Source of the DNA: Rhynchobatus australiae
Lineage: Eukaryota
Length of the DNA stretch: 64,000 nucleotides
Assembly: GCA_034780895.1 (NCBI GenBank)
Contig: JAUZTB010000076.1
Location: 33,467,675 to 33,531,674 of the forward strand
Direction of reading: 5' to 3'
Of the stretch, positions 4,893-47,880 are shown one piece after another. The stretch's first letter is position 1. Each line of letters begins with the position of its first letter. A program made the position numbers and the translations under genes. Below the pieces are notes generated by a model, which saw only the letters and a program-made list of their open reading frames with translations, was not told where the DNA came from and did not search any database.

Positions 4893-7759
4893 GTTTAGGG
4901 AACATTCAGGTTTACAATGCTGAGGCAGGTGTCAGAGGAGGCACCCACTTTCACACAAACCACTGGAAATCAATACTGCAGCATGGGAGCCAGGAATGGT
5001 CTGGAGGTTAGATGCCACTGCAGCTGACTCCCGCTCCACCACTGAATTCAGCAACAAATCCAGGCAAGGAGCATACATATCCTGAGTTGAGGAACCAGAT
5101 ACATTTCATCTGGGGCCCCTCAACTTTCTTAGTGTGAACCCACTAATTCGAATGGGGTTGCTGAATGGATCAAAATGATTATGGCTGTTTTTTTTTGAAA
5201 AATGATTTCTATTAATGCTTTTAATCGAGTTGTATTAGTTGATTTACTTTTCAAATTTTAAAATGTTTTAGTGTATTTCAACTATTTGGAACTTTTCTGA
5301 TTACCAGAGACACACAAAAATAGTTGAAAAGCTCTCTGCCACCACAAACTGTCAGAAGAATAAGAGGCCAGTTATGGATCACCCTGCTTCATAGAATGAC
5401 GGTGGTAGTGAGATATGGAGCTCAATTTCTCCCACAGACCCACAAAGTGGTAATGTGGTCACAGAGGTTGCACAGGGGACACATATAGGATGTGGGCTGG
5501 GTGAAGCATGGTCTGGCCCAACGTAATAAATGGATCTGCTCAGGTCTTGTAAAATTCTGAATCAGAATGGAACCTTGAAATCTTTGCAAAATCTACCCCC
5601 TCCCCATCCCCCAATTTAATTTCCTTACAGTAGTTTTGAGCCAAGTTTCATGTTTCAACCAATCAAGCATTTAGCCTTCTTACAGGGCAATTAGCTACTG
5701 CATGGCAGTAATTATAGTATCCTTAATTGCTTGTGGTGGGCAGCTCTACAATGTCCTCCTTTAAGAAAGGCAAGGATCCCGACATTAAAACTCAGTTGTT
5801 AGACAAGATTGTATCAACAGGACTTTTCAGTAGCTAGGATCATCGATTTGAGGGGTGGGGAATGTTAGTTGGGGATGCAATTGAGATATAATTCATGTAT
5901 TGAATTTTTTTGGTTAATATTTGCAAATTATTACCTGCAAATACAAACAAATACATAAGACTTGATGTTACCCATCAGCAAAGTGAAATTTTGTACTTTA
6001 AAACTCCTGCAGGAGGTAGTCTCTGCTGTCTTGAAAGTTATGTGGGGAAAATGTCTTGTCCTTGGATAATGATTTCTCTTCGGGAATACAAGACACTAGA
6101 ACTAGAGAAAAATTATAAGTTTTTTCTTTGTAGATCATTAATGCAGCCTCTCAATTATACACCAGCCCTTTGGTCTTCAAAGTCACTCAGAACATTTTAC
6201 CGAAGTCATTTTTGTGTCAAACGTGACAGTACAAAAGATGAAGAGCATTATAGGTTGAAAAAAAATATATACAAGACAGCGATCAATGGATTTAATTATT
6301 TACAATGTAGTTTTTGAAAAATGAATAAGACGAAGAAATGCAAGTCGTCAGATTGAACTGTGAGAGATGTCAACAGTGATATGAGACACATGCTAATTAC
6401 AAATTGCCTGTCTCTTTCTCTTTGCGTTTCAACGAAGTCCGTCTAACAGCTGAGTGAACTCAGTTCACTAGTCTGGCTGCTCTGGGGACCCTGTAATGCA
6501 GGCATTGATCTTTACTAATTCAGAGTGTACTGTACTAAGCTTTCCTCAAAAAGGTACAATGAGAGCTTTCAATTTTTAACCTGGTGACGTCTTTCATAGA
6601 CTAATGCAGAGACTGCAATTTTTTTTCACTCTGCATATTAAGAAATCATATAATGACAGCTCTTTCAGCCTGGCTGGAAGCCTTGTGTGATATATATTAT
6701 CTCTTGGCACTTATTTCAATCACCTTGATTTTTAAGTACAAGTGAAAAGAGACTGTCAGTCACCTCTTATGAGCAAAATACTTAATAATTCTACAGCATT
6801 TGCACTCATGACCAAAACATCTGGTCAAGCAAACCCACAAGCTATTTATTTCCTAAGAGTATAACAAAAACCAACACTTAAAACCACACCCTCTCTTGGC
6901 CCAAACCTATTAAGGGAACATATACTTGTCCATAACTTGAGGTTGATCTCAGATAATTATCTCACGACCTTTTGTGCTAAAATACAGCAAATATATTTTA
7001 ACTTGGTAAATTACATTTTACTACAAGAACACCTAATACCCAAAACAATTTTGAAACCAATTATACAGTTAAAAAATGATTTTAAAGTTTTCTACCAAGC
7101 CAACAAAACATTGAATTTTAATTGGACAAAAATATATTTTGCTCTCCCTCTAAAAAACATAACTAAATCACCACAAAAACATTGGATTTTATGTCATAGG
7201 CCTCAAGGTTCTCTTGAAAATTGGGGAAAGGTGAATCCAGAAATAAACCAATAGCTGTACTATTCTATGAATGTTGAATACCCAAGCTTGTGACATTAGT
7301 TCAACTGCACACTCTACTCAATCCAGAGTGTTGCTGTCATCCCACCTGTAATCTAGTCATAAATCATTGCCAAATGTCAGAAATGAATTGCAGTTTGATT
7401 ATTGGTTACTGTGAACCAACCCCCACATTGTCCTCCCCCTGCCCTTTTGATTTTCCCTCAAGAATTTTTTTAAAGGCAAAATTGCTTAAATTCATAGCTT
7501 ACTTTCTGTTCTCTAAAGTTATGACAAGGCTCCATACAAAGCAGACGGTTAACACCACAAGACTTTGAATAATTTTATTAAGACTTAGAAAATGCAAAAA
7601 AAAATTGACATTATTTATTTACACCAATTACTGCTGGTGAAATGGATTTGTACACATTTATCTCTTGGCCATTATCAATACAAACATTCAAAGACATCAT
7701 CAAATGGCATGTACAATTAGCAACTCATGTTTTAACTGCTAACATATGTAATGTTAAGG

Positions 7760-8102
7760 AAGAAACAACTGGCATTTATAACATGTTTTTTTTTCCATTT
7801 GTCCCAAGGTGCCTTGCAATGAATACAGTAATTTTCAAAAGTAATTACTGTTGTAATGCAAGAAAAATGGCGGCCAATTTGTACGCAGCAAGGTTTCACG
7901 AAGTAGTGAAATAAATGACTGGATTATCTGTTTTCAGTGTGGGCCAAAGGATAAATGTTGGCCAAAATGTCAGGAAAACTCCATTCTTCTTTGAATAGCA
8001 CTACAAGCTTTTAGGTCACCTGTTTAATGTGTCATCAGAGGGATATCTGATAATGCAGCACATGTTTGTGACTTAAGAGGTGAAGTTTTATCACTGGGCT
8101 CA
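7760..8102 (-). mobile_element. DeuSINE (SacSINE1-like) SINE with internal deletion
   Basis: ACTGGCATTTATAACATG...GTCCCAAGGTGCCTT...ACTGTTGTAATGCAAGAAAAATGGCGGCCAATTTGTACGCAGCAAGG...AAATGACTGGATTATCTGTTTT...GGATAAATGTTGGCCA closely resembles the antisense Deu domain. Confidence 0.8.
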
Positions 8103-12204: not shown

Positions 12205-12460
12205 CATCTCCAGACTCTATCCCCATCACTTTCCATGTATGACACTTAACAACTAAAGACACTTCCGTCAGTCCCCAAAGCTCTGGACACACCCATCACT
12301 CTTCACAGTTCCATGTGCTTTCTGTCATTCTCCACTGCTCCTGTCACTCCTCAAGTCACTCCCTACAGTAATAAAAATGCCAATCAGTCACTAAAGCTCC
12401 CTACTTTACATGTCACTCTTCACAGCTCCATATTTTTCATGTCACTCTTCAGGCTCTGTT
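12205..12460. repeat. Degenerate minisatellite-like array (core TGTCACTCTTCACAGCTCC)
   Basis: Recurrent CATCACT/GTCACT units: CCATCACTCTTCACAGTTCC, CTGTCACTCCTC, ATGTCACTCTTCACAGCTCC, ATGTCACTCTTCAGGCTC. Confidence 0.55.
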
Positions 12461-14407: not shown

Positions 14408-14520
14408 AATGTGAAATACAGCAACTGCAGGAAATCAGAAACAAAAACAGCAGATCAGGCTGCTTCTGTGGAAAGAGAAGCAGAGTTGATATTTCAAGCT
14501 CATGATCTTTCTGCAAAACA
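14408..14520 (-). mobile_element. Penelope-like element terminal repeat fragment
   Basis: CTGCAGGAAATCAGAAACAAAAACAG...TCAGGCTGCTTCTGTGGAAAGAGAAGCAGAGTTGATATTTCA; same repeat as 19856 and 33378. Confidence 0.7.
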
Positions 14521-19430: not shown

Positions 19431-19855
19431 CAACTCTAAAGTTTTCACAGACTCCTTCATAAAAGTCTCAATTTAGTTTCACTAAAATATATTAAAAAAG
19501 GATTTACTACTTTGAGCTCAATATAAATCCAAATGACTTAACCACTGAATGATTATAAAGTGACTAGAGAGAAACAATGGGCAAAAAGAAATTAAATTTT
19601 GAGGTATTGTGAAAAAATATTTGAACTAAAACCATTCAAGTTGTGATCAAGTAGTTGTGAGTAAAATACTGAACTCTAAGAAAAAGAGTAAACAGGTTTA
19701 ATACAAGTCAGCAAGTTTCAAGCAACTTTATCTGAAGAATGATTTGCTGTACAAAATGTATCTGGGTGATCCTCACATTAGGTTTTACTGAAGGAACTTG
19801 GGCACTTTATGGCCTATTGCAAAATCTGGAAGAATTTTACTTCATAAGGCTAATC

Positions 19856-20865
19856 CGGATGTTGGAAATCTGAAATAAAAACAGAAAATGCTTAAAATAT
19901 GCAACATGTCAGACAGCTTCTATGGAGAGAGAAATAGAATTAACATCTCAGGTCAATAACATTTTATTAGAATTAGGAAAGTTAGAAAGTAAACATATTT
20001 GAAGTTGCATAAAGAATAAAGGGAGTGTCTGTACTCAGGTGGTAAAAGTTTATTCGTCATAGCTGATCCATTTGGAGAAAGTATGAATATAGGGACATGA
20101 ATAAGACAAGAAAGAAAAATGCTGGACTTGTGAGATGCAGAACATAGTGTTTGCCAGAAATCTGAAGTAAAACAGAATACTTAAGTACTTAGCATGTCGG
20201 GTGGCATCTGTGGTGAGAGAATAACTGCGTTAATGTTATAGGCTGGTGAGTTACATCATAACTGGTCAGTTCTGATACAAGCTGAAAAGGTTGATTATCT
20301 GAAATTGCTGAATTTAATTTTGAATCCTGAGAGCTACAACGTGCCTAGAAGGAAGATGAAGTGTTCTTTAACCTGCATTGGGCTTCATTGGAACTGTGGA
20401 AGAGGCCAAAAACTCAGAAGTCAAGGTGCGAGTGGGATGGAGAAGTGAAGCTCTGAGTAAACTTACAGACTGAACAAAGCTGTTCTGCTAAGTGGTCACC
20501 CAATTTGAATTTGGGTTGTCCAACATGGAAGAGGCCATGTCATGAGCACCAAATACAATATTCTAAATTGGAGTAAGTGAAAAGTGAATAACTACTTCAC
20601 TGGAAGGAGTGTTTGGGTCCCTGCATGGTGAGAAAGGAAGAGGTAAAGGGATGTGGGCAAGTGTGGCGAGGAAAGTGATTGTTGATGGTCTACACTCTGT
20701 CAATGACAATACCTCCACTCTTCCCTCTTCTCTGCAACCGAAAATATGTTTTTTTTCTACTTATCGCCATTCTGATGAAATGCTATTGATCCAAAACTTT
20801 GTTTCTCTCTCCACATTTGCAGTTTGACCCACTGAGTATTTCCAGTGTTTTCTGTATTTGCTTCT
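19856..20865 (-). mobile_element. Penelope-like retroelement remnant: two tandem termini, GIY-YIG C-terminal region and one inverted terminus
   Basis: Antisense termini at 19856-19980 and 20150-20270. Minus-strand 20300-20630 gives decayed 'FTSPSHSHLDF*VFGLFHSSNEAQCRLK..HFIFLLGTL*LSGFKIKFSNF', the typical C-terminus of a PLE GIY-YIG endonuclease. A sense terminus lies at about 20720-20865. Confidence 0.85.
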
Positions 20866-26759: not shown

Positions 26760-27552
26760 TCGTGTTCAATATATACATGTGCTTTATGGAGGAACTCAGC
26801 CAGGATTTCTGCAAAATATCAGTTTCCCAATACTGGCTTAGAATGAAGAAGAGACACAGGCAAATTTGAGAATTCTATTTGCAGGTAAAATATGGCACCT
26901 TCAAAAGGGAAAATTGAAGAAACATTTTTAAAAAGATAATGTGAACCATTTTGCTTTCTCCTGCCCTTCTACTGCTTGGTTTAGACCAAGTGTTAGGATT
27001 GGATTGTGTCCACAATAGCTCCTCCAGTAGCCCAGATCAACAATGTCTTTTGGAAAACACCTGATCAATACAATATCTCAACTTTGGCAGAAGTATTTAG
27101 AACTAGGAATCTTCCCAATTCATGCACAAGTGACCCTTTATGAGCCTCTCCTGGTATTCTTTCTCAAACGTACATTTTTGAAATAAAAAGATCTCTCTAC
27201 TATAGTGGACAGTGAATACCATTAGATAGGACCACACTGGCCGCTTGGAGCCATGAGTAAGGATATGAAAATCCAAGTGTTTATTCAGATAGGAAATATT
27301 TTTGTCCCAACTCTAAAAAAAATTTAAGTTAAAATATAAGGATGTATTATAAAAGTCCCATCTTGTTGGTGTGACCACAATACTGTAACAGTAATCATTT
27401 AATAAGCATCAGTGGATAGACTATTGAAATTACACAACATGATGGGAGGCTGAGTAAGCATCTATTAAAATAGCCATTTTAATCTGACATCCTTGAGTAT
27501 GTAATTTGAATGGGAAAGGCAGTATCACATAGCCTTTAAGAGAACTGTGCAC

Positions 27553-27870
27553 TGCCCTGTTCAACTTACTTGAACTAATAAGGATACTTACTTCAGCATT
27601 ATTAATAATTAAAAGCAATATCATGCTTTTTAAACTCTCTATTCAAATTCCATGATGCTTTCTTATTATTTTGGCCTTACTACCCTGGAGACTTGATTTT
27701 TAAAGCTATATGTGCTCTTGTTAAAGAAACTATGTGATTAATTGTCATCTTTAGTTCAATTCTGTATCTACAAAAGGAATGATATCTGAGGTTCAAGCAG
27801 AACTGAAGCAAGGATCTTGGAAATACCCTGTTCAATTTACTTGAACTAACAAAGGTACTTAGTTTAGTAT
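27553..27870. repeat. Pair of ~46-bp direct repeats about 270 bp apart
   Basis: CCCTGTTCAACTTACTTGAACTAATAAGGATACTTACTTCAGCATT (~27555-27600) versus CCCTGTTCAATTTACTTGAACTAACAAAGGTACTTAGTTTAGTATT (~27826-27871). Confidence 0.8.
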
Positions 27871-30145
27871 TCAGTTTGGCTGGCACTGCTTCCTTGTGGC
27901 AAGATATTTGAACTTGCTTCCACTGCATACATCTTACAGCTCCTCTTGTAATCTCATCTAGATAAGCAGAGTTCCAAGTTCTGTCCAGGCCTTCTGCACT
28001 AAGGCTACCAAAAATATATACCTGGTATCATCCTTTTTTTGAAAAATAAATTGTTTGTCTAAAAAAGTTACTGAACATATTGCAACTTTCAAGGCCAAGG
28101 AAACTGTCAATCTCCAATAGGAACAGTCATCTTGGATGAATCAACTTACCAGGAAGTCGCACTAAGCTCTATACTGAGGGATAGAATTGAAAATAACTGT
28201 GGGGGACAGAAGCAGTCTGCTTCTCATATACTGATTAAGCCTAACATACGTTGAGAATGTTTTTAAAACCTTCACATATGTTACAGGTTCTCCTGTCTTA
28301 TAAATAGTTGCAGTCAACTGATACCAATACGGCATTGAGTTGTACAATTTCCATTAAAATATCACTATTGCCTATCCAGAGTCAAAATATAAAACAAGAC
28401 TGAGAAATACATTAAATATGTGAAACACAGTGAATAAAGAACATGTCAATTACAATAAAGGACAACCTAAAATGTACCAATCAAAGAAATCTCCTCAAGC
28501 ACTTAAAACTGTGGAGAGTTGGTCCTCTGAATGCAGTAGTTAATAGAGATCAACCAACAATCAGTTGTGAATATGAGTTTGTAGAGCCATTACTTTAAAA
28601 GGCAGGCTGACTCTCATCCTGCTGGTTTCAGTTTAGCTATTTACTGGTCTTTTCCCATCATAACAAAAGCTTATTAAACAGTAATATAATATCTCTATGT
28701 ATCAGTGGATCACTGGATAATCAATTATAAGTTATTGCATTTGCTGCCACTGAAGACATCAAAATATGGTCAGCAGTCCTGTTTTAATGATGAATATGCA
28801 GATAGGTATTATTTATATAATTTGACAAGAATCATCAAGTAGTCCTGCAAGAAACCACAGTCAACCAGTCGTACACTGGCAACACAAGAATATAGTCCAA
28901 CTTTGGGCATTTAAAAAAAATTCTAGTTTTGCTCTCTTATTGAGCTTATTTTGGTGGTCTGGTTGCCATGCCTCTCCACTTATCTAATTTGTGCAAATAA
29001 TTTCTGTGAAGGGATCTTTGGCAATGTTTGGATTAAAGCCATAATTTTCATATTTTTTGATGATTCCTGACATCACAACATGAAATTATTGCAATAAAGT
29101 ATTTTAAACTTCCAACAAAAATATTGTATTGACTTGTAGGGACACTAAAGGAACATGTTTAGCTCCTAACTTTATACCATGCATAATAGCCCCAAATTTC
29201 AATTTAAAGAAAATCGACTTTTCATTACTTTAACCAATTTCCTAAAATGCTGATTTTTTTTTATTTTCACTTGACATACTCCTTCATTTCATTGTCAGCT
29301 GTAATTGATAATGCAATATTTATCAGGGAATTACACTGGACAATATTATCTAACCAACACTTCTCAGAAATGTTGAGCATTCCTCACTTTTTTATTTTCA
29401 CAGAAAATTTTATTTGTTCAATTTGAGCACTTATTCACCAATACCAGCAACAGCCACTTACTGATTTAAAATTTCCTCATTATCTGTTAATAGCAGGCCT
29501 CTGGATTCTTCACTCCTCTACTAGAATTCTGCAAATCAACACAACCTCCATTTTATAAACATCTCTACGTTCTCTCTCTTTAGGTTGTTTGGCATCAGCT
29601 TTACGTCTTTTGTTGCTCCACTGCCTATTCTAAGTCAAAAAGTATACCTGACTGGTAGTCCAAAAACCCTTCAGAATTCTATCAAGCTCCTCAGCTGATA
29701 GTCCAGTGGAACCCACAAGAAAATAACAGGACTTCAATTGTGCTGTATTTCACTGTTTTGAAATTTTCCAACCAACCTCGATAGGATATGCTATCACCCA
29801 GTCCTAGCCTACCAAATAAGCAGCAAAACAAAAAGGGCAGGTCCACAATGAGAACTACCTACACCAATAAGGATCCAAGTCTGGACTGGACTTAAGCATG
29901 CAAAGGAACACGAGACTAGTTTCAAGATGGATTGAGGCGAGAGGTCTTTGCAGGCACCTCCGTCCCCATGCACTGGCTATTCTGACTGTTGGAACCAGCT
30001 TGTTGATGCCAAAAACCCTGCTCTCCAAATCAAACACCATAGATTATCACAGCTGTAAGTGTAATTTAGTTCTGCACAGTTTTATACGATTGTTATTTTA
30101 AATCAAATTAAATATATTGGAAAAACAGTATTAAAAAAACAATAA

Positions 30146-30902: not shown

Positions 30903-33377
30903 AACTACGTCCTACCAAACAAATAACCAGTGCTATAAGTTCGTGGGCAAGAGGATTCTTAATGGTGGGGAAACTTAATGAACTAAGAAGAAAGGATAAG
31001 GTGATGATTTAGGTTAATGAAATGAGTAAAACTAGTCACAGTATATCAGGAAGAAATAGAACACACAAACTGCTCCGACTTCTGTTCAGGAAAATATCTA
31101 AATATGAGATACTCAATTACTCTTAAAGAGATTGATGAAGATCACCATGCCACAGCTACACTGATTTAAAAAAAGTCCTTATCTTAGTGTGGAGGCCACA
31201 GATGCAGGACTAAATTGCCAAACCACTTCTTCTGATAACCTATCTCCTCAATTACCTTTTCCTTCTTCAAGTGTCCCTACTTCCCATGTGTTTCTTGAAG
31301 CAAAATTTCAATGCAGGGATTAATCCCTGAACCCAATTTTTTCTCACATTACTTTCAAGTTTGTAAAGTATACATTAAGATAACAATAGCTCATGGAAAA
31401 GTTATCTGTCAATGACTTGTAATCCCAATTAATGCCAATTATCTTATTATGCTTTGGAATTAGGTTAAAAAGAACTACTTGTAAATTGTTCAAATGACTT
31501 AATTGACATAGGCAAACAAAATCACCTGGTGCATGCCAGACACCCTTTCATTACTTCTAACACAATATAAAAGTTGCTTTCTGAGTGCAGTGCAGAATGT
31601 TGGCCTTGTTTCAATAGTTCCAAGCCATGGTATACGTCTCTGACACTTATATTTCATTAAAATTCATTCCCCTCCCTTATTGGTTAATTTAGAAAATTGT
31701 CTAAATTTTCAGACTTATTTACTGTGTCAGAAAAAAAGTTGGATTGAGGTTGGCCTGGGCAATCTTCATTGTCTGGGCAGCCTGACAAAAACTTGAAGTG
31801 TGTTGACAATTCAGTCAGGAATGCCAATTTGAAACAAGCACAACGAAGCCCACAAAGCCAAGTAAGTTAGTGGGAATATACAATATTCTGGTGTCAAAAG
31901 CTGAAGGTATACTAATATGGCAAGAAGTAACACCAGCCCACAGTCAAACAGAATGCAGATTCACTATTTATACATACATTGGCATCAAATCCATAACAGT
32001 TTTTGGCTTTAATCCATAATTTGTTAATCACATGTTGTCTAACATTCAATTGTTCCCATTATAGCATTTCTTTAAGACAGTTGTTGCTGCAATTCTATAT
32101 CCTGTGACTGAAGTTTTTCAAATCAAACCCTGAACCATTTTCTCCAGTGAAACGAATGTAACCATGTATTATAATTATTTAACCATATTTTGTTATTGAT
32201 TATGGAAAGTTGAACAGTTACTTGTTTAATAGTTTGAAATTCGATGCAAAGACTATTAAATCATTATTCCGTCTTTATGATAATCTCAAAATTTTAAAGG
32301 AACACATTACTTATTCATAAATATCAATTCAAAAATTAGCTTTTTCAAATTTATAACAATATTTTAAGATTTGTGTTTTAGGGTATTAAGAGGTGTCCAA
32401 ATGCAAATGATCAAATCTCCACTTTAACCAAATTGAGATTAAGCATTAATATTGCTTAATGCTCAACTGAGTGAGAACAAATTTATCCTAATCAAAATGA
32501 AGGGCCTGTCTGTGAAGGATTTGAGCCATGGGTTGTGTCCTTGAGAAATGGTAGGAAAGCAATCGGCTTTCCAAATTATTGATAAAAATGATACACATTA
32601 CCTAGCAGCAATAGGATTTAAACTGCATCCCAAAGAAAAGTAAAAGCCTGATAAAATATTTTCTTCATCCAAAAGACAATTTACTCCCATGTTTTCACTG
32701 ACCACAGATTGTAAATTTTACCTTTTCAATCCTTGGATCCTGACAGATAGTTTAATTTTATTATAACTGAGGAACAAATGGGCCTCACAGCTCAGAAGTG
32801 AATTAGGGAACATAAACATGGGCAGAAAATTAAAATAATTAAATATTGAACAATAAATAATAATTTACTTGAAAGTTAAATCTACTTAAAAGTTGTTTAA
32901 CTAAATAAACAATAAAAACTATGTTGGAAAATTGCAATCTAATCGGGAAGATCAGGCACTTTAATTTACTCTGATCTCACATTCACTCTAACAAGAGTAA
33001 TGTGTACTGTGTGTTCTAAGTTTAATTTTTATTTCAACTATAAAGTTTCAAAGTCTCAGTAAAATTTCCATTGAATTCAGTTGCTCAGAAAACAAGTAAA
33101 CCCAGTACAAATGTGAAATACGCCAGAATCTAACATTGTGCGACTCGTTTCTGAAGTGTGAAGTCTCATCATCTTCCTAAAGTTTAGTGCTCACTCCAGT
33201 TAAACCTTGCAAGTATTCAAATTGCCTTATAGAAGCACCTCAATGATATTTTTTTAATTAAACAGTTGCACCATAATCACTTTATATGTAAGTTTGCTTT
33301 CCATACATACTGAAAAATGAAGAATTTAATCAACAACAGTTTTGTCAACATGAGCTGAACTATCTTAAAAGGTAATA

Positions 33378-34605
33378 CATGCTGGAGACACTTAGCAAGT
33401 CAGGCAGCATCTGTGGAAAGAGAAACAATTAATGTTTCAATGCCAGAACCCTTCATCAGAACTGGAGAGAAAAATAAAAGTTAGTTTCAGCAGAAGAGGA
33501 TGAGAGAGAGAAATGGATAGAACAAAGAGAATATCTGTGAATCACTATAGTGAGACCAAATAGTTTAATGGGAGCAGTTAAAGTAGCAGTAAGAAGCAAA
33601 TCCGTCTCTGCAATGTGTAAGAGGAAGGCTGTGGGACATGCGCAGCAAGCCAGACTATACTGACTTTCTTTTCCAATCTTTTTATTAATTTTCAAATTAA
33701 TAAATATAACAGTAGTAATTATAGGCATAATACAAAGAGATCAGGATTATAATAACAGTTAACGTATACAGACACAAAGAGTGAAATGTGTAATCTGAAC
33801 CTCCCAATTTCTGGAAAACTGAGCATGAAAAAGATTTAAAAAGAAATTTGATTATATGAAAAATACCCAAACCAAAAAAAAGAACAATAACAAACCTAAT
33901 AGTAATATTAAACAAAAACTAACCAAAAACTAAACAAAAGCTGGGCTGTCATATTTCATCGGTTAAAAGCATTATTATGTCATTAACTCCGCTCCTCTAT
34001 ATTCAAATAGAAAGTTATTGAAAAGGATTCAGAAAAGGTCAGCTTACATCATATGAAAATGCTGAATGAATAGGCTCCAAATTTCTTCAAATTTAACCGA
34101 AGGCTCAATAGTACCACTCCTAATTTTTTCTAACTTTAAATATGTTATAGTTTGGGAAAACCATTGGAATATGGTAGGGGGTTTAGGATCTTTCCATTTC
34201 AGTAGAATGGATCTCCTGGCTATTAATGTAACAAATGCAATCATATGACAAGCTGAGGCAGATAAATGGCCAGAACCCATCATTGGTATCCCAAAAATTG
34301 CAGTAATAGGATGAGGAGGCCAGACTATACTAATAGAAAAATAAAAACTGAGTCAAAATGATGACATGGAATGGACAGTTCTAATACAGAAAGAAAGAAA
34401 GAATGGGTAACTCAAAGTCTGAGAATTTAATATCGAGTCCAGAAGGCTGCAACATGCTCAGAGAGAAGATTGGGTGTTGTTCATCAAGCATTGGGCCTTG
34501 TAGATACACTGCAAGAAGGTACAGACAGGACGGTCAGAGTGGGCATGGGATAGTGAATTAAAGCAGCAGGCAACCGGAAGCTCAGGATCACTCCTGCAGA
34601 CTCCT
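33378..34605 (-). mobile_element. Penelope-like retroelement 3' portion interrupted by an L1
   Basis: Antisense terminus at 33378-33490. Minus-strand 34410-34605 translates to 'VCRSDPELPVACCFNSLSHAHSDRPVCTFLQC..KAQC/LDEQHPIFSLSMLQPSGLDIKFSDF' (GIY-YIG C-terminus), homologous to 20300-20450. Confidence 0.85.
33662..34318 (-). mobile_element. 5'-truncated L1 (fish/chondrichthyan type) with 13-bp TSD
   Basis: ORF 34044-34283(-) 'IARRSILLKWKDPKPPTIFQWFSQTITYLKLEKIR...KFEEIWSLFIQHF*' is an L1 ORF2 C-terminus. It is followed by a T-rich 3'UTR and AATAAAAAGATTGGAAAAGAAAG. TSD GCCAGACTATACT at 33649-33661 and 34319-34331. Confidence 0.92.
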
Positions 34606-36766
34606 TCCCTTAAAAGCTCAGATTAAAAGGATTCTGGAGCAGTCCGTTAATTTCAATAACAAGCTTAAAAATGGGCAATCCTCAAAAAGAAAAGCTATGA
34701 GCATTCTATCATGGGTGCCAGGAAATCTTTAAAGTTTACAATTAAACTGATTAATCAAAATGATTCAAAGACAAAAAGAGGCATTTTGTATTTTAGCAAA
34801 AGCTGCACTGATGTATGTAAATCTGATCCTGTCTAGTTGAGAAATAAACTTCCTCAGATAAAAACTAAGTACTTGTAGCAATTCTAAGGAGAATTTTAAA
34901 AATTCCAACTCTCCTTGGTAGAAGAAGGTTGGTTAAAAAGCAGCATTATTGAATAAAGCACATTCTTCCAATCATGAAAGAAAAAAAACATTTCAAGTAT
35001 TCCCAAGNNNNNNNNNNNNNNNNNNNNNNNNNNNNNNNNNNNNNNNNNNNNNNNNNNNNNNNNNNNNNNNNNNNNNNNNNNNNNNNNNNNNNNNNNNNNN
35101 NNNNNNNTCCCAAGATAATACTGGAGAAGAATGAGGAAAGAAGCATTATCCTGATGCAGCCATAGTTTGTCAGTTAAATGACTGCTGTCAGAACATAACA
35201 ACTATACAGCAATATTCATGTCTTGAGACTAGGTAGGAACATTTTGCATTTATTTTACCAATGAAGACCATTAGCAATGCATTTTTAGAGGAAAATATCA
35301 TGAAAGTGAACCGTATCAAAGAGGGTAAACTCATATCAATCCAAGATNNNNNNNNNNTGAGTAAACACAATGATTTTATAGAATTATGTTTAACTTTCTT
35401 AGTAATAATAGCAGATGGTAATATAATCATAGACCAAGGATTTCAATGTTTCTCTTGAATATCTTTATTCTGGAAAGTTGGTAGCACATACTGCTAAATT
35501 GTTTCAAAGTTCTACAGTACTGTGTTTTACAGCTTACTTTGTTTTCTCACCTTTAACAGAATGGAGTCCAAAATAATGGAAACAATCTATTTACTACAAA
35601 CAGTAACAAAAAGTAAAAGGAAATTCAAGCACTGGGTATGCCATCATATCATGTACTTATATGTCTAGTGGTTTCTATCTGCTTGTCTTGCATATGATTA
35701 ATCTGGAACATTGTTCTAGTAGCTAACTAATAATCAGCCCTGTCCCTTTTAGGCTGTTTATCAGGTTCTCTTTCTGTGAGCACATGGTTTAAATATGAGA
35801 AAGTTCCATAGAGGTTAACAATTGACTTACAATGTTTGCCTTGAGTGATAGCTGGTTGGCTCTTCTTCTGCCTGTCTTCAGAGCAGAACAAAAATCAGTA
35901 CAAAATGAGTGNNNNNNNNNNNNNNNNNNNNNNNATTAAGGATTGTTCAGTGTCATTCATGGGCGTATTATACAAACAGCAATTCCAATCACATAACCTC
36001 TGGAGAAAGATGCACGGTCTCTAAACCTTCATCTAGTTGCTTCCCCACTTTACTAATGAACCCTTGCCTTATATAAGACCTTAAAGATTGTTTCACCATT
36101 CTATCAGATTCCAGGTGATCATCTGCATCAATAATTCTTGGTTGAACAAATATTTCAGGCTCAAGATTCATTCTTTCAGAAGTGCTTCAGGAAAATTCAT
36201 CTCTTTTAGTACTGTCGTGCCTTATATACATAAACCATACTGTTCGGCCTCTGCCAAATTCACATCTAAACCATCCATAACCTTGGTTCTGCCCATGGTT
36301 TGAGGACGATTCTCTTGCCAATCTCATCTCCCCTCCCAAAATGGCATGATAGAACTCTGGTATACAAGAGAGTCACAAGTTGGTATCAAACACATGCACT
36401 ACAACACAAAGTGTCTGAATGCCTATAGAAAAAGTGTGCCTCTATTTTATCCCTCACCTCCATCAATGATTTGATACAACATCAAAATTATGAATGATAG
36501 AGTGTGATCTGTGTCCAGGTGCCAGAAAATATCTGAATTATTGCTTTCATGCATTTAAAGAAAGCATGAGAGCAACAAATTAACAACTCACTCTGCATCT
36601 ACGTGATGCTAATAGATCTTGTTTGGTATTCATTTCTGAATCAGGGTAATATTCAAGTGGTAATAGTTATAAAAGTGTTGAATCTGATAAGAGCTCAGCT
36701 CTATGTTTAACTATGGTACACGTAAGTAATTGCCAACAAGACAGTTTATCCCATTTGGTAGATTAC

Positions 36767-39244: not shown

Positions 39245-40613
39245 TCAGCCTGCTAGTCTCTATCAATGGATGAAAAACAGTAACTGTGTCTGTCACCACA
39301 ATCCACATATGGATTTTTGGAATAATCTGGTGGAGTCCACTTTGTTGTTAACCTGTAGAGGGAAACATGTATTTATGTGGACGGCCACATCTCTGATGCC
39401 TTTCAGGGTGCCAGATACTTGGGAACAAAGCAGTGAAGTTCACTTTGTTGTTGACCTGTAGAAGGAAACAGGTATTTGTGTGGACAGCCACGATTTGAAT
39501 GACTTTTGGGGTGAGGCAGATGCAGTGGAGTAGTCACTGCTGAGTAGACACTGAGGTGTCGTTTGGGTTCTAAAGTGGAACATTTGGATTTTGTAATTAC
39601 TCTCTATTTGCTCTCTACGTTTTGTCTTCAGTCAACAGTGATTGTTGAAGAAGCCTTTGCTCACGTTTCACCTTACAGCTTGCTGAACTGAACTTTAAGA
39701 ACCATTCCGGGACTTGGAGTTTAGAAATTTGCCAAATTAACACTACGAGTTTAGTTTTTGGGGTTAATGTTTAAGATCTAACATTTTTACTTTTATTTTT
39801 CTTATTATCATAAGCAGTTATTAATAAAGTAGTTTTTCACACTTATACATGACTCAGTGTGTTTCTTTTGTTACTGGTTCGTAACAGTTACCAAGAAGGT
39901 CGATGAGGAAAAGACAGTGGATGTTGTACACATGGACTTTAGACAAAGTCCCACATGGGAGGCTCGTCCAGAAGGTTAAGTTGCTTGGCATTCAGGATGA
40001 AGTAGTCAATTGGATTCAACACTGGCTTATCAGGAGAAGCCAGAGAGTGGCAGTAGATGGTTGTCTCTCTGACTGGAGGCCGGTGTCTACTGGTCTGCTG
40101 TAGGGATCAGTGCTGGGTCCATTGTTATCATCTATACTAATGATTTAGACAATAACGTGGTAAACTGGATCAGCAAATTTGACACTGACACCAAGATTGG
40201 GGGCGTAGTGAACAGTGAGGAAGGCTATCAAAGCTTGCAGCATAATCTTGACCAGCTAAATAAATGGGCCGAAAAATGGCAGATGAAATTTATTACAGAC
40301 AAATGTGAGATGCTGCACTTGAGGACACACCAGGGTAAGACTTACAAAGTGAATGGTAGGGCTCTGAGGTGTAAAGTAGAACAAAGGGACCTGGGATCAG
40401 AGGGCGGTGAATGTGTGGAACAAACTACCATCAGAAGTGGTAGGTGTGAGTTCAATTGTAACATTTAAGAGAGGTTTGGATAGGTACATGGATGGGAGCG
40501 GTTTGGAGGGATATAGTCCGGATGCAGGTAGATGGGACTAGACAGAAGATCAGGTGGCATGGACTAGATGGGCCGAAGGGCCTTTTCCTGTGCTGTAGTG
40601 CTCTATGGCTCTA
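38499..40613 (+). mobile_element. CR1 (HER1-like) LINE ORF2 pseudogene, about 1.3 kb, split by a solo LTR
   Basis: ENPKGFYSYIKS...DKSPGPD...WRIANIVPLFKKGSKNKPGNYRPVSLTSVMGKLLE...SQHGFVRGRSRLTNLIEFF | ...DKVPHGRL...LSDWRPV...ISKFDTDTKIGG...WAEKWQMKF. Tail GGGCCGAAGGGCCTTTTCCTGTGCTGTAGTGCTCTATG. Stops and frameshifts are present. Confidence 0.96.
39092..39886 (+). mobile_element. Solo LTR (Gypsy/ERV-like) with 4-bp TSD
   Basis: Starts TGTTACG and ends CGTAACA (perfect 7-bp inverted termini). GTTA lies at 39088-39091 and 39887-39890. Contains a (GA)n tract and AATAAA at about 39823. The CR1 sequence resumes after excision. Confidence 0.93.
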
Positions 40614-41249: not shown

Positions 41250-41320
41250 TTATCTCAGTTTCTCTCTCCATAGATGCTATCTGGTCTGCTGAGTGTTTCC
41301 AGCAGTTTTTGTTTTTTCAC
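41250..41320 (+). mobile_element. Penelope-like terminal repeat fragment (sense)
   Basis: GTTTCTCTCTCCATAGATGCTATCTGGTCTGCTGAGTGTTTCCAGCAGTTTTTGTTTT matches 20800-20860. Confidence 0.75.
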
Positions 41321-44519: not shown

Positions 44520-44635
44520 GAAAGAATCAATTAGTGCCCTCAAAAGGGAATTGGGCAGGTACACGAGAGAGTAAAACCATAAGCTGGCATAGACTTGTTG
44601 AGCTGAATGCCTTCTTTCTATGCCATAAAAATCCT
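44520..44635 (+). mobile_element. CR1 3' tail fragment
   Basis: GCCCTCAAAAGGGAATTGGGCAGGTAC...AGCTGGCATAGACTTGTTGAGCTGAATGCCTTCTTTCTATGCCATAA resembles a CR1 terminus. Confidence 0.55.
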
Positions 44636-45151
44636 TTGAAAGAATATTTGAACTTGGTTGCTATGATGTAACAACGAGTTGAAGGAAACAAGAAATACTT
44701 GAAGTAAAAAAAGAGTATTTAATCCTATATAAGAAATTTGCAGCAGTTATGTTCATTATTTTATATGCCACGTTTTCTTCTCTGATTCCAGAATCATATA
44801 ACAGTGACACTGGCATCACATTCTGCTCCTACATTGCATGTATTACAAGTCAGTGTTGAGTTGTTTCTTTTCCCAAGCTCAACAACTTCATCATTATGCC
44901 TGAACGCTACAAATCTCATGTAACCTGTTGCATGATTATCTGTAACGATCTTTATTTGTTGTGTTGCCACTGATTTCTGCTGATGGGTGGTCAAAAACAA
45001 AATCCGGGGTTTGATGATGATAATAACATAAAGGCTCTCTTTTCCAACCAGGAAGACATACATAAATCTAGTTAGGTACATCTTTAGATGTTAACAATGG
45101 AAAAGATACACTGTCATGACTAAAAATTTCAAATATTCTTTCAAAGATTTG

Positions 45152-45560
45152 TTATAGTGCAGGAGGCCATTCAGCTATTCAAGTCTATGCAAGCTCATGG
45201 TAGACCCAACATATTCTACTCTCTCAAGTGTCTGTCCAAATCCTTCTTGAGGCACTGATCAATTTTGCTCTTTCACACAATTAATTCTGGATAATGATGC
45301 TCTAAATTTATTGTCATATCTTCTTGAAAATCATGACAAAATATTAAATCTGTTTCCCTTTGATCCATTCATTACTCTGAACAATAGGACAGTCTCTCCT
45401 CAGAAGAGACATAAAAAACCTGAATACAACACATCCAATTGTCTTTTCCACCGTCTTCAAAGAGAAAAAACAACAATGAAGTTTCTGACGTCCAAAAATT
45501 TAGAGTGCAGTGTGTAGCGTTTACTAATGACTTACATAATATGTTTCAATGAACAGTTCT
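45152..45560 (-). mobile_element. Old CR1 3' region, degraded
   Basis: CAGGAGGCCATTCAGCTATTCAAGTCTATGCAAGCTC...GTGTCTGTCCAAATCCTTCTTGA is antisense to a CR1 terminus; the downstream part is only patchily similar. Confidence 0.5.
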
Positions 45561-47668: not shown

Positions 47669-47880
47669 AGAGACAAAAGAGACTGCAGATGCTGGAATAT
47701 GGAACAACACACAAAACACTGGAGGAACTCAGCAGGACAGGCAGCATCTATGGAGTGAAATAGTTCAGATGAAGGGTTTCTACCTGAACCACCATCTGTA
47801 TATTTACCTTCTAATGCTAAATTGTCCATCTGAATTTTCTCTTTTTTTAAAATACTTCCTGCATTCAACTTTTTCTTTAC
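47669..47880. mobile_element. Palindromic (head-to-head) Penelope-terminus element
   Basis: The left arm GACTGCAGATGCTGGAATATGG...CTGGAGGAACTCAGCAGGACAGGCAGCATCTATGGAG is followed directly by an opposite-orientation arm AGTTCAGATGAAGGGTTTCTACCTGAACC...ATGCT...CTGAATTTTCTC...TTCCTGCATTC. Confidence 0.7.

Follow-up and report, generated by a model that had tools for sequence, protein, structure and literature searches.

Minimal hammerhead ribozymes in the ends of Penelope-like elements (PLEs) have already been published (PMC4209133; Cervera and De la Pena, 2014). Among fish PLEs, that paper places them in Xena, Poseidon and Neptune, and it lists as their features an extra nucleotide, a palindromic 15.2-16.2 and a G10.1-C11.1 pair. 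In vitro they are described there as weakly active, with activity seen only in multimers or once a helix III had been added. The Poseidon element PAc of Anolis carolinensis carries a hammerhead that, according to the portion of PMC11167929 used here, cuts only with the element's protein and is dispensable for in vitro insertion; no RNA-seq reads end at its cut site. For Neptune (and Nematis), a Cys-rich linker is named as a mark of the clade in the relevant parts of PMC3846280 and bioRxiv 10.1101/2021.04.23.441226, and palindromes at inverted joints are linked to self-priming in the former.

We analysed a stretch of 64,000 nucleotides of the Rhynchobatus australiae genome (contig JAUZTB010000076.1), called the window below, in whose coordinates all positions without a locus name are given. 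A first-pass annotation had proposed a minimal hammerhead in a PLE terminus on its minus strand at 33426..33464. Our analysis leaves little doubt that this is a decayed minimal hammerhead, and that the PLE copy whose 3' end it occupies is old and truncated at the 5' end. With both helix II and the palindrome of helix III broken, the motif is probably no longer able to cut.

A decayed hammerhead at 33426..33464

When the sequence was reread, the minus-strand letters at 33464-33426 were found exactly as the first-pass annotation had quoted them. In order along this strand, the motif can be laid out as a minimal type I hammerhead with the 5' strand of helix I (33464-33460), an intact core C3-A9, CUGAUGA (33459-33453), an extra A between positions 9 and 10.1 (33452), which is a feature listed in PMC4209133 among those of the minimal hammerheads it describes, helix II and its loop, now destroyed (33451-33439), G12-A13-A14, GAA (33438-33436), a loopless helix III, ACAU, whose palindrome was lost through CpG decay (33435-33432), U17 (33431), and the 3' strand of helix I (33430-33426). 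The predicted cut site lies between 33431 and 33430. All core positions of the proposed CUGAUGA and GAAA are present, as C3-U4-G5-A6-N7-G8-A9, G12-A13-A14, A15.1-U16.1 and H17. Helix I, too, forms five pairs, one of them G-U, within the 4-5 bp of a minimal hammerhead. The pairing thus stands as it had been described, but the G-U is a C-to-U decay on the 3' strand and not a feature of the family, in which AAC was counted 53 times and AAT 6 times among 59 copies.

A match this complete is rare in random sequence. When the window was resampled 300 times with a first-order Markov model, the core together with all five helix I pairs turned up in a single resample; the real window has it once. By itself the core is frequent (mean 0.35 per resample, two in the window), which is one of two points in favour of a resemblance by chance. 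The other is that an Rfam search of the window returned no hammerhead match; this blank is uninformative, because seven loci with intact or near-intact hammerheads gave no hammerhead match either. Since the motif is complete in all its elements in hundreds of family copies, and core plus helix I was so rare in the resamples, chance can hardly be credited as the explanation. Judged by its letters, the motif is non-random.

Two of the three stems are damaged, helix II and helix III. The helix II positions at which the first-pass annotation saw a decayed helix read G-U, G-U, GxA, UxC and U-G, with no Watson-Crick pair and without G10.1-C11.1. Relative to the majority of its subfamily (subfamily A, below), the window copy has four substitutions in the helix II stem and one in helix I. 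In folding computations, a forced helix II came to +9.1 kcal/mol, whereas values from -2.5 to -5.8 were obtained for six A copies in which this helix has five pairs. The self-duplex of ACAU came to +3.4, against -1.7 for ACGU, and position 15.2-16.2 is no longer palindromic.

That ACAT had decayed from ACGT at its CpG was borne out by related copies. Among the 59 closest copies, which are those matching the window copy's own sub-subfamily pattern, letters counted by eye gave ACGT 11, ACAT 19, ATGT 17, ATAT 4 and other 8; the first 100 of 2421 looser matches, also read by eye, gave 10, 34, 32, 10 and 14 in the same order. A pooled, profile-based A sample was skewed (ACAT 31 vs ATGT 12, p = 0.005), which counts against simple CpG decay, because simple decay predicts no such skew. 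The profile behind this pool was seeded with window-like copies. A master element with ACAU, suggested by the pool, was rejected, as it found no support in the 59-copy and first-100-of-2421 counts, both of which are symmetric.

With helix II and the palindrome both lost, the copy is probably inactive, as had been supposed. A profile search of the window found no potential partner close by: the nearest other family copy lies about 7.8 kb off, on the opposite strand, and begins 3' of the core, and the nearest same-strand copy covering the motif lies about 13 kb away. A second organism has the same locus, with 33200-33693 matched at 12 differing letters and 4 gaps. A search for expression listed no RNA source. 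We further followed decay in 100 anchored copies (L217-L314), the first 100 of 8070 exact genome matches to a 24-nt motif just 3' of the hammerhead, all on one contig and chosen by this downstream motif only. In this set 48 copies cover the hammerhead, 9 retain its core and 1 satisfies the full descriptor. In copies sorted by subfamily, retention of core and flanks was 0.87 vs 0.84 in subfamily A and 0.89 vs 0.92 in subfamily B, so that the core is not clearly better kept. These results bear on the idea that the window copy still works as a ribozyme, or was co-opted as one, and processes a host transcript, perhaps together with another family copy to which it pairs. The survival of all core residues and of helix I, and the presence of the same locus in a second organism, would fit this idea. 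However, neither helix II nor the self-duplex can form any more, the nearest copies lie at the distances just given, an intact core is kept in 9 of 100 copies through survival alone, and sharing of a locus with a close relative is expected for any old fixed insertion. We therefore regard an active or co-opted ribozyme as very improbable.

The PLE copy and its family

The decayed hammerhead sits within a PLE copy on the minus strand. On its 3' side lies the PLE 3' terminal segment (33379..33425), the abundant repeat of the first-pass annotation, here without the optional 3' extension. On its 5' side lies the distal 3' untranslated part (33465..33661), which ends in a branch-point-like CTAAC, a pyrimidine tract and a CAG overlapping helix I. 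Further upstream, a later insertion interrupts the copy (33662..34318, minus strand). It is the 3' fragment of a LINE-type element, whose homologs carry RVT_1 and zf-RVT, and a 13-bp duplication borders it on either side (34331-34319 and 33661-33649). Beyond it, the 5' part of the PLE copy (34319..34603) holds a frameshifted remnant of the GIY-YIG C-terminus (about 34600-34414) and the start of the 3' untranslated region. The outer ends carry an 8-bp match on the minus strand (5' copy 34609..34616, 3' copy 33364..33371), suggestive of the PLE's own target-site duplication; two random 30-nt windows would share such a match by chance at about 1.5%. An inverted 5'-truncated partner is absent from the window copy.

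The protein signal within this copy is weak when taken alone (profile E 0.26-0.41; best tblastn to PLE homologs E 1.6e-4). Its link to PLEs rests on DNA alignment to longer copies. Against the longer locus L085, 33561-33379 aligned at 73% identity and 34603-34304 at 70.5% (312 columns, E 3e-32). The PLE terminus that had been claimed was thereby upheld: upstream the copy runs on into what is left of a GIY-YIG, and it can be aligned with longer copies containing reverse transcriptase (RT), linker and endonuclease.

Several other features of the copy and the window were observed. The LINE-type 3' fragment at 33662-34318 (minus strand) is high-copy in four public runs, and sequence like it sits in two protein models from rays (P0091, P0092), which may be an annotation error. 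CTAAC (33484-33480), the pyrimidine tract and CAG (33464-33462), which ends in the helix I 5' strand, resemble a splice acceptor on the minus strand and are retained across subfamily A; a second pyrimidine tract with CAG and ATG follows the hammerhead at 33425-33410 (minus strand). In Drosophila virilis Penelope, as described in a passage of PMC4209133, an intron ends at helix I. A pyrimidine-rich strand could be all that lies behind the acceptor-like sites at the hammerhead. None of the 147 window frames of 62 aa or more gave a Pfam match at curated cut-offs, so that this search pointed to no host gene; short exons would escape it. The frame at 40073-40468 (plus strand), likewise without a Pfam match at these cut-offs, resembles a CR1/L2-type reverse transcriptase remnant. 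Outside the PLE family matches, two nested inverted-repeat arms of 39 and 42 nt, about 80% complementary, occur at 44576-44666 and 45114-45201 around 450 nt. Stretches of 95, 59 and 39 nt are locally duplicated in direct orientation, with 77-79% identity, at 39316-39513, 27542-27871 and 12296-12451.

The repeat is abundant, as had been stated. A search of this 2.23-Gb genome at the DNA level gave 1663 candidates, of which 40 were scored, and a profile was built from these and further copies. The profile found 7 copies in the window and 49 matches in 407,536 unselected bases, taken from the window, the adjoining 200 kb and 20 scattered stretches of 10 kb each. This is a density of about one match per 8 kb or, by extrapolation from the 49 matches, roughly 2x10^5 copies genome-wide. 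Within the window, a second truncated copy with a GIY-YIG remnant lies at 19855..20665 on the minus strand (profile E 2.4e-10; terminus matches 20008-19855 and 20280-20152), head-to-head with a copy at 20727..20865 on the plus strand. This complex, 19855-20865, has a clearer GIY-YIG remnant than the copy studied here and three terminus matches. Further copies are a decayed one at 14409..14519 (minus strand) and two that begin 3' of the hammerhead core, at 41255..41316 (plus strand) and 47682..47765 (minus strand).

Family copies reach upstream to varying lengths. L085 and L086 extend more than 1 kb upstream into broken coding sequence, and in these two as well as in L131, L134 and L138 the RT together with a GIY-YIG at the C-terminus are colinear, though broken, as parts of one frame. 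In L131, L134 and L138 the hammerhead lies 3' of the frame, with a Cys-rich linker between RVT_1 and GIY-YIG. Proteins homologous to the long copies carry PF00078 (RVT_1) and PF01541 (GIY-YIG), and the closest named protein relatives of the family come from sharks and a ray. The Cys-rich linker between RT and endonuclease was present in L134 and in 60 of 64 homolog C-termini. By this layout of RT, Cys-rich linker and GIY-YIG, the family appears to be Neptune-like.

Searches for a complete element were negative within their scope. The sampled loci contained no element with two direct terminal repeats around one frame, and no intact frame was found in 16 long loci or in 35 loci around intact B copies. 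In L138, post-hammerhead sequence was not seen to continue into a frame start. Eight broken family frames gave no Pfam match at curated cut-offs, and PDB sequence searches returned nothing useful. Two loci hold same-strand pairs of intact hammerheads (L345 3478-5826 and L346 2016-2550); each abuts an assembly gap, and the pairs may be tandem elements or assembly duplicates. A Stegostoma protein model, P0005, ends in 15 residues that are the expected translation of read-through into a hammerhead of the same kind, and this protein end hints that the motif is common to sharks. Near a PLE remnant in L145, an open frame (7345-8049, minus strand) resembles the PRY/SPRY (B30.2) domain of a TRIM-like host gene.

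The arrangement of copies also bears on whether the repeat could be a non-autonomous retrozyme or SINE-like unit and not the end of an autonomous PLE. Most family copies are short, and tandem hammerhead repeats derived from PLE ends are described for one chondrichthyan in bioRxiv 10.64898/2026.07.22.740005. On the other hand, the window copy and others of its subfamily extend variably into endonuclease and RT sequence, and copies are dispersed, with same-strand neighbours within 600 nt at 12/100 and 8/100 anchored copies. The window copy is single and joined to a coding remnant, not a tandem non-coding unit. This remnant largely refutes a retrozyme or SINE-like origin for the window copy, and we find such an origin highly unlikely for the repeat. 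Neighbours on the opposite strand were distributed differently: a copy within 600 nt was found upstream of 37/100 anchored copies vs downstream of 10/100 (p = 9e-6). Both arms belong to the same subfamily in 17 of 18 head-to-head pairs. The optional 3' extension was present in 36 of 88 copies with a body end, among 97 gap-free anchored copies examined. Inverted upstream partners and an optional tail are both characteristic of PLEs.

Two subfamilies and the ends of insertions

Copies covering the motif, other than the search targets, were sorted by their 3' flank into 59 A, 33 B and 12 unsorted. Subfamily B has helix I closed by C-G, a G10.1-C11.1 pair, ACGU and a GUC site, and shows all features of minimal hammerheads that were looked for; its intact pattern has 340 exact copies. 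Subfamily A, which includes the window copy, has U-A at that helix I pair; its loop II is 3 nt long, and it reads G10.1-U11.1 with GUU as its site. Its intact pattern, with core, helices I and II, extra nucleotide and palindrome, has 37 exact copies. A G-U pair at 10.1-11.1 and a U17 slow hammerhead cleavage. Reversed-pattern controls for the A and B patterns gave no matches. Copies of both subfamilies thus show a complete minimal hammerhead. Seven of the 33 B-like copies (L118, L216, L141, L139, L144, L117 and L029) share by descent a C at core position 9 or a C inserted before A9.

Helix I pair 2.1-1.1 reads U-A in 49/76 A copies and C-G in 30/59 B copies, and positions 2.1 and 1.1 each separate A from B on their own (p <= 8e-10). 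Covariation, which the first-pass annotation had proposed to test in both helices, is thin: helix I shows one compensatory pair, a single event between the two subfamilies, and none was seen in helix II. At 10.1-11.1, subfamily A departs from the G-C of minimal hammerheads, with G-U in 33/76 copies and G-C in 6/76, and U11.1 in 34 of its 37 exact copies.

These letters raise the possibility that the master element of subfamily A was already a poor or dead ribozyme, with G10.1-U11.1, GUU and a monomer folding as a long hairpin, and that the motif was kept for its structure or for protein binding. U11.1 does look like the master state: the site reads TG 51 vs CA 6 in 76 A copies, and 79 vs 6, by eye, in the first 100 of 2421, whereas the same site in B decays evenly from CG (18 vs 18). 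U17 stands in 52/59 A copies, the strand at the cut site is paired to core residues when monomers are folded, and 5' ends do not cluster at the cut site. The anole results cited at the outset, with hammerhead mutants unimpaired for in vitro insertion and no reads ending at the cut site in the data described in PMC11167929, point the same way. However, core, extra A, helix II and palindrome have all survived in the A majority, and a compensatory change has restored helix I; therefore continued selection on the fold is indicated. GUU is, moreover, among the active NUH sites (PMC3138052). On balance we lean against a poor or dead master while giving it some weight. It is compatible with a decayed hammerhead at the end of an old PLE copy, our preferred explanation of the window copy, and alters only the ancestral step.

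The insertion ends were mapped in the anchored copies, of which seven were dropped for gaps. Only 4/93 5' ends fell within 3 nt of the predicted cut site, while 42/93 lay 12-36 nt upstream of it, inside the hammerhead, and 10/93 in the next 25 nt. In most of 60 trials, truncations simulated at the cut site were recovered to within 3 nt. When 18 head-to-head pairs were fitted jointly, 2/36 arm ends fell at the cut site and 21/36 inside the hammerhead. Cut RNA as the usual template was hence rejected, since 5' ends do not pile up at the cut site (4/93, and 2/36 arm ends). Our literature search found no paper that places head-to-head joints inside the hammerhead.

By folding computation, monomers can form one long hairpin in which core residues pair with the cut-site strand, and such a hairpin could stall or self-prime reverse transcription. 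A broader proposal is that the hammerhead shapes insertions as a hairpin and not as a knife: reverse transcription would stall and fold back inside it, which would explain both the position of 5' ends and joints, 12-36 nt upstream of the cut site instead of at it, and the wide spread of A with its G10.1-U11.1 and GUU. We offer this as speculation, rather doubtful as it stands. The clustering of 5' ends inside the hammerhead is only a lead, because a plain length distribution, or unsorted subfamilies diverging just upstream of helix I, could partly produce the same pattern.

The history of the window copy may be pictured as follows. The motif of the master element would have formed a weak type I ribozyme. 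Its helix III would have been completed by ACGU:ACGU pairing to another copy in a tandem transcript, by assistance from the element's protein, or by both, and cleavage would have taken place after GUU. Reverse transcription would have started about 60-90 nt 3' of the hammerhead and halted early, leaving a 0.6-kb stub. This stub would then have received the LINE insertion and decayed without selection.

Comparison with described elements

The window copy itself matters little, as one of very many decayed stubs. Its family is a dense further example of the published link between PLEs and minimal hammerheads, and supplies hundreds of naturally intact copies from two subfamilies, between which three sites relevant to catalysis differ. 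Compared with the metazoan minimal hammerheads in the sections of PMC4209133 used here, the family is alike in its type I fold, short helix I, extra nucleotide 9/10.1 and loopless palindromic 15.2-16.2, and also in its position at a PLE terminus, its thousands of dispersed single copies and its several subfamilies. In contrast, the window copy is decayed, subfamily A has G10.1-U11.1 and GUU, and helix II is 4-5 bp, whereas that given for Schistosoma is 7-8 bp. A term search of supplement file 2 of that paper returned no shark or skate terms.

With the Neptune-type PLEs in the parts of PMC3846280 and bioRxiv 10.1101/2021.04.23.441226 consulted, the family shares RT, Cys-rich linker and C-terminal GIY-YIG, as well as 5' truncation, an inverted 5' partner and an optional 30-40 nt tail. 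It differs in that no intact frame was found among the sampled loci of the studied genome, the likeness being one of domain layout. Animal non-LTR retrozymes, as far as the portion of bioRxiv 10.64898/2026.07.22.740005 used here describes them, also carry a type I hammerhead related to PLE ends, in one case in a chondrichthyan. However, retrozymes are tandem and non-coding, whereas the window copy is single and attached to coding remnants.

The anole element PAc, in the material drawn from PMC11167929, resembles the family in its terminal hammerhead, in insertion 3' ends shortly downstream of it and in an optional tail. It belongs to another clade and its hammerhead behaviour was assayed, whereas the family described here was studied by sequence analysis. 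If reverse transcription does stall at the hairpin, paired natural A and B copies would make it possible to test whether cleavage is of importance for PLEs in vivo. Taken together, the fossil record of insertion ends argues against cut RNA as the usual template, in agreement with the in vitro work on the anole element.
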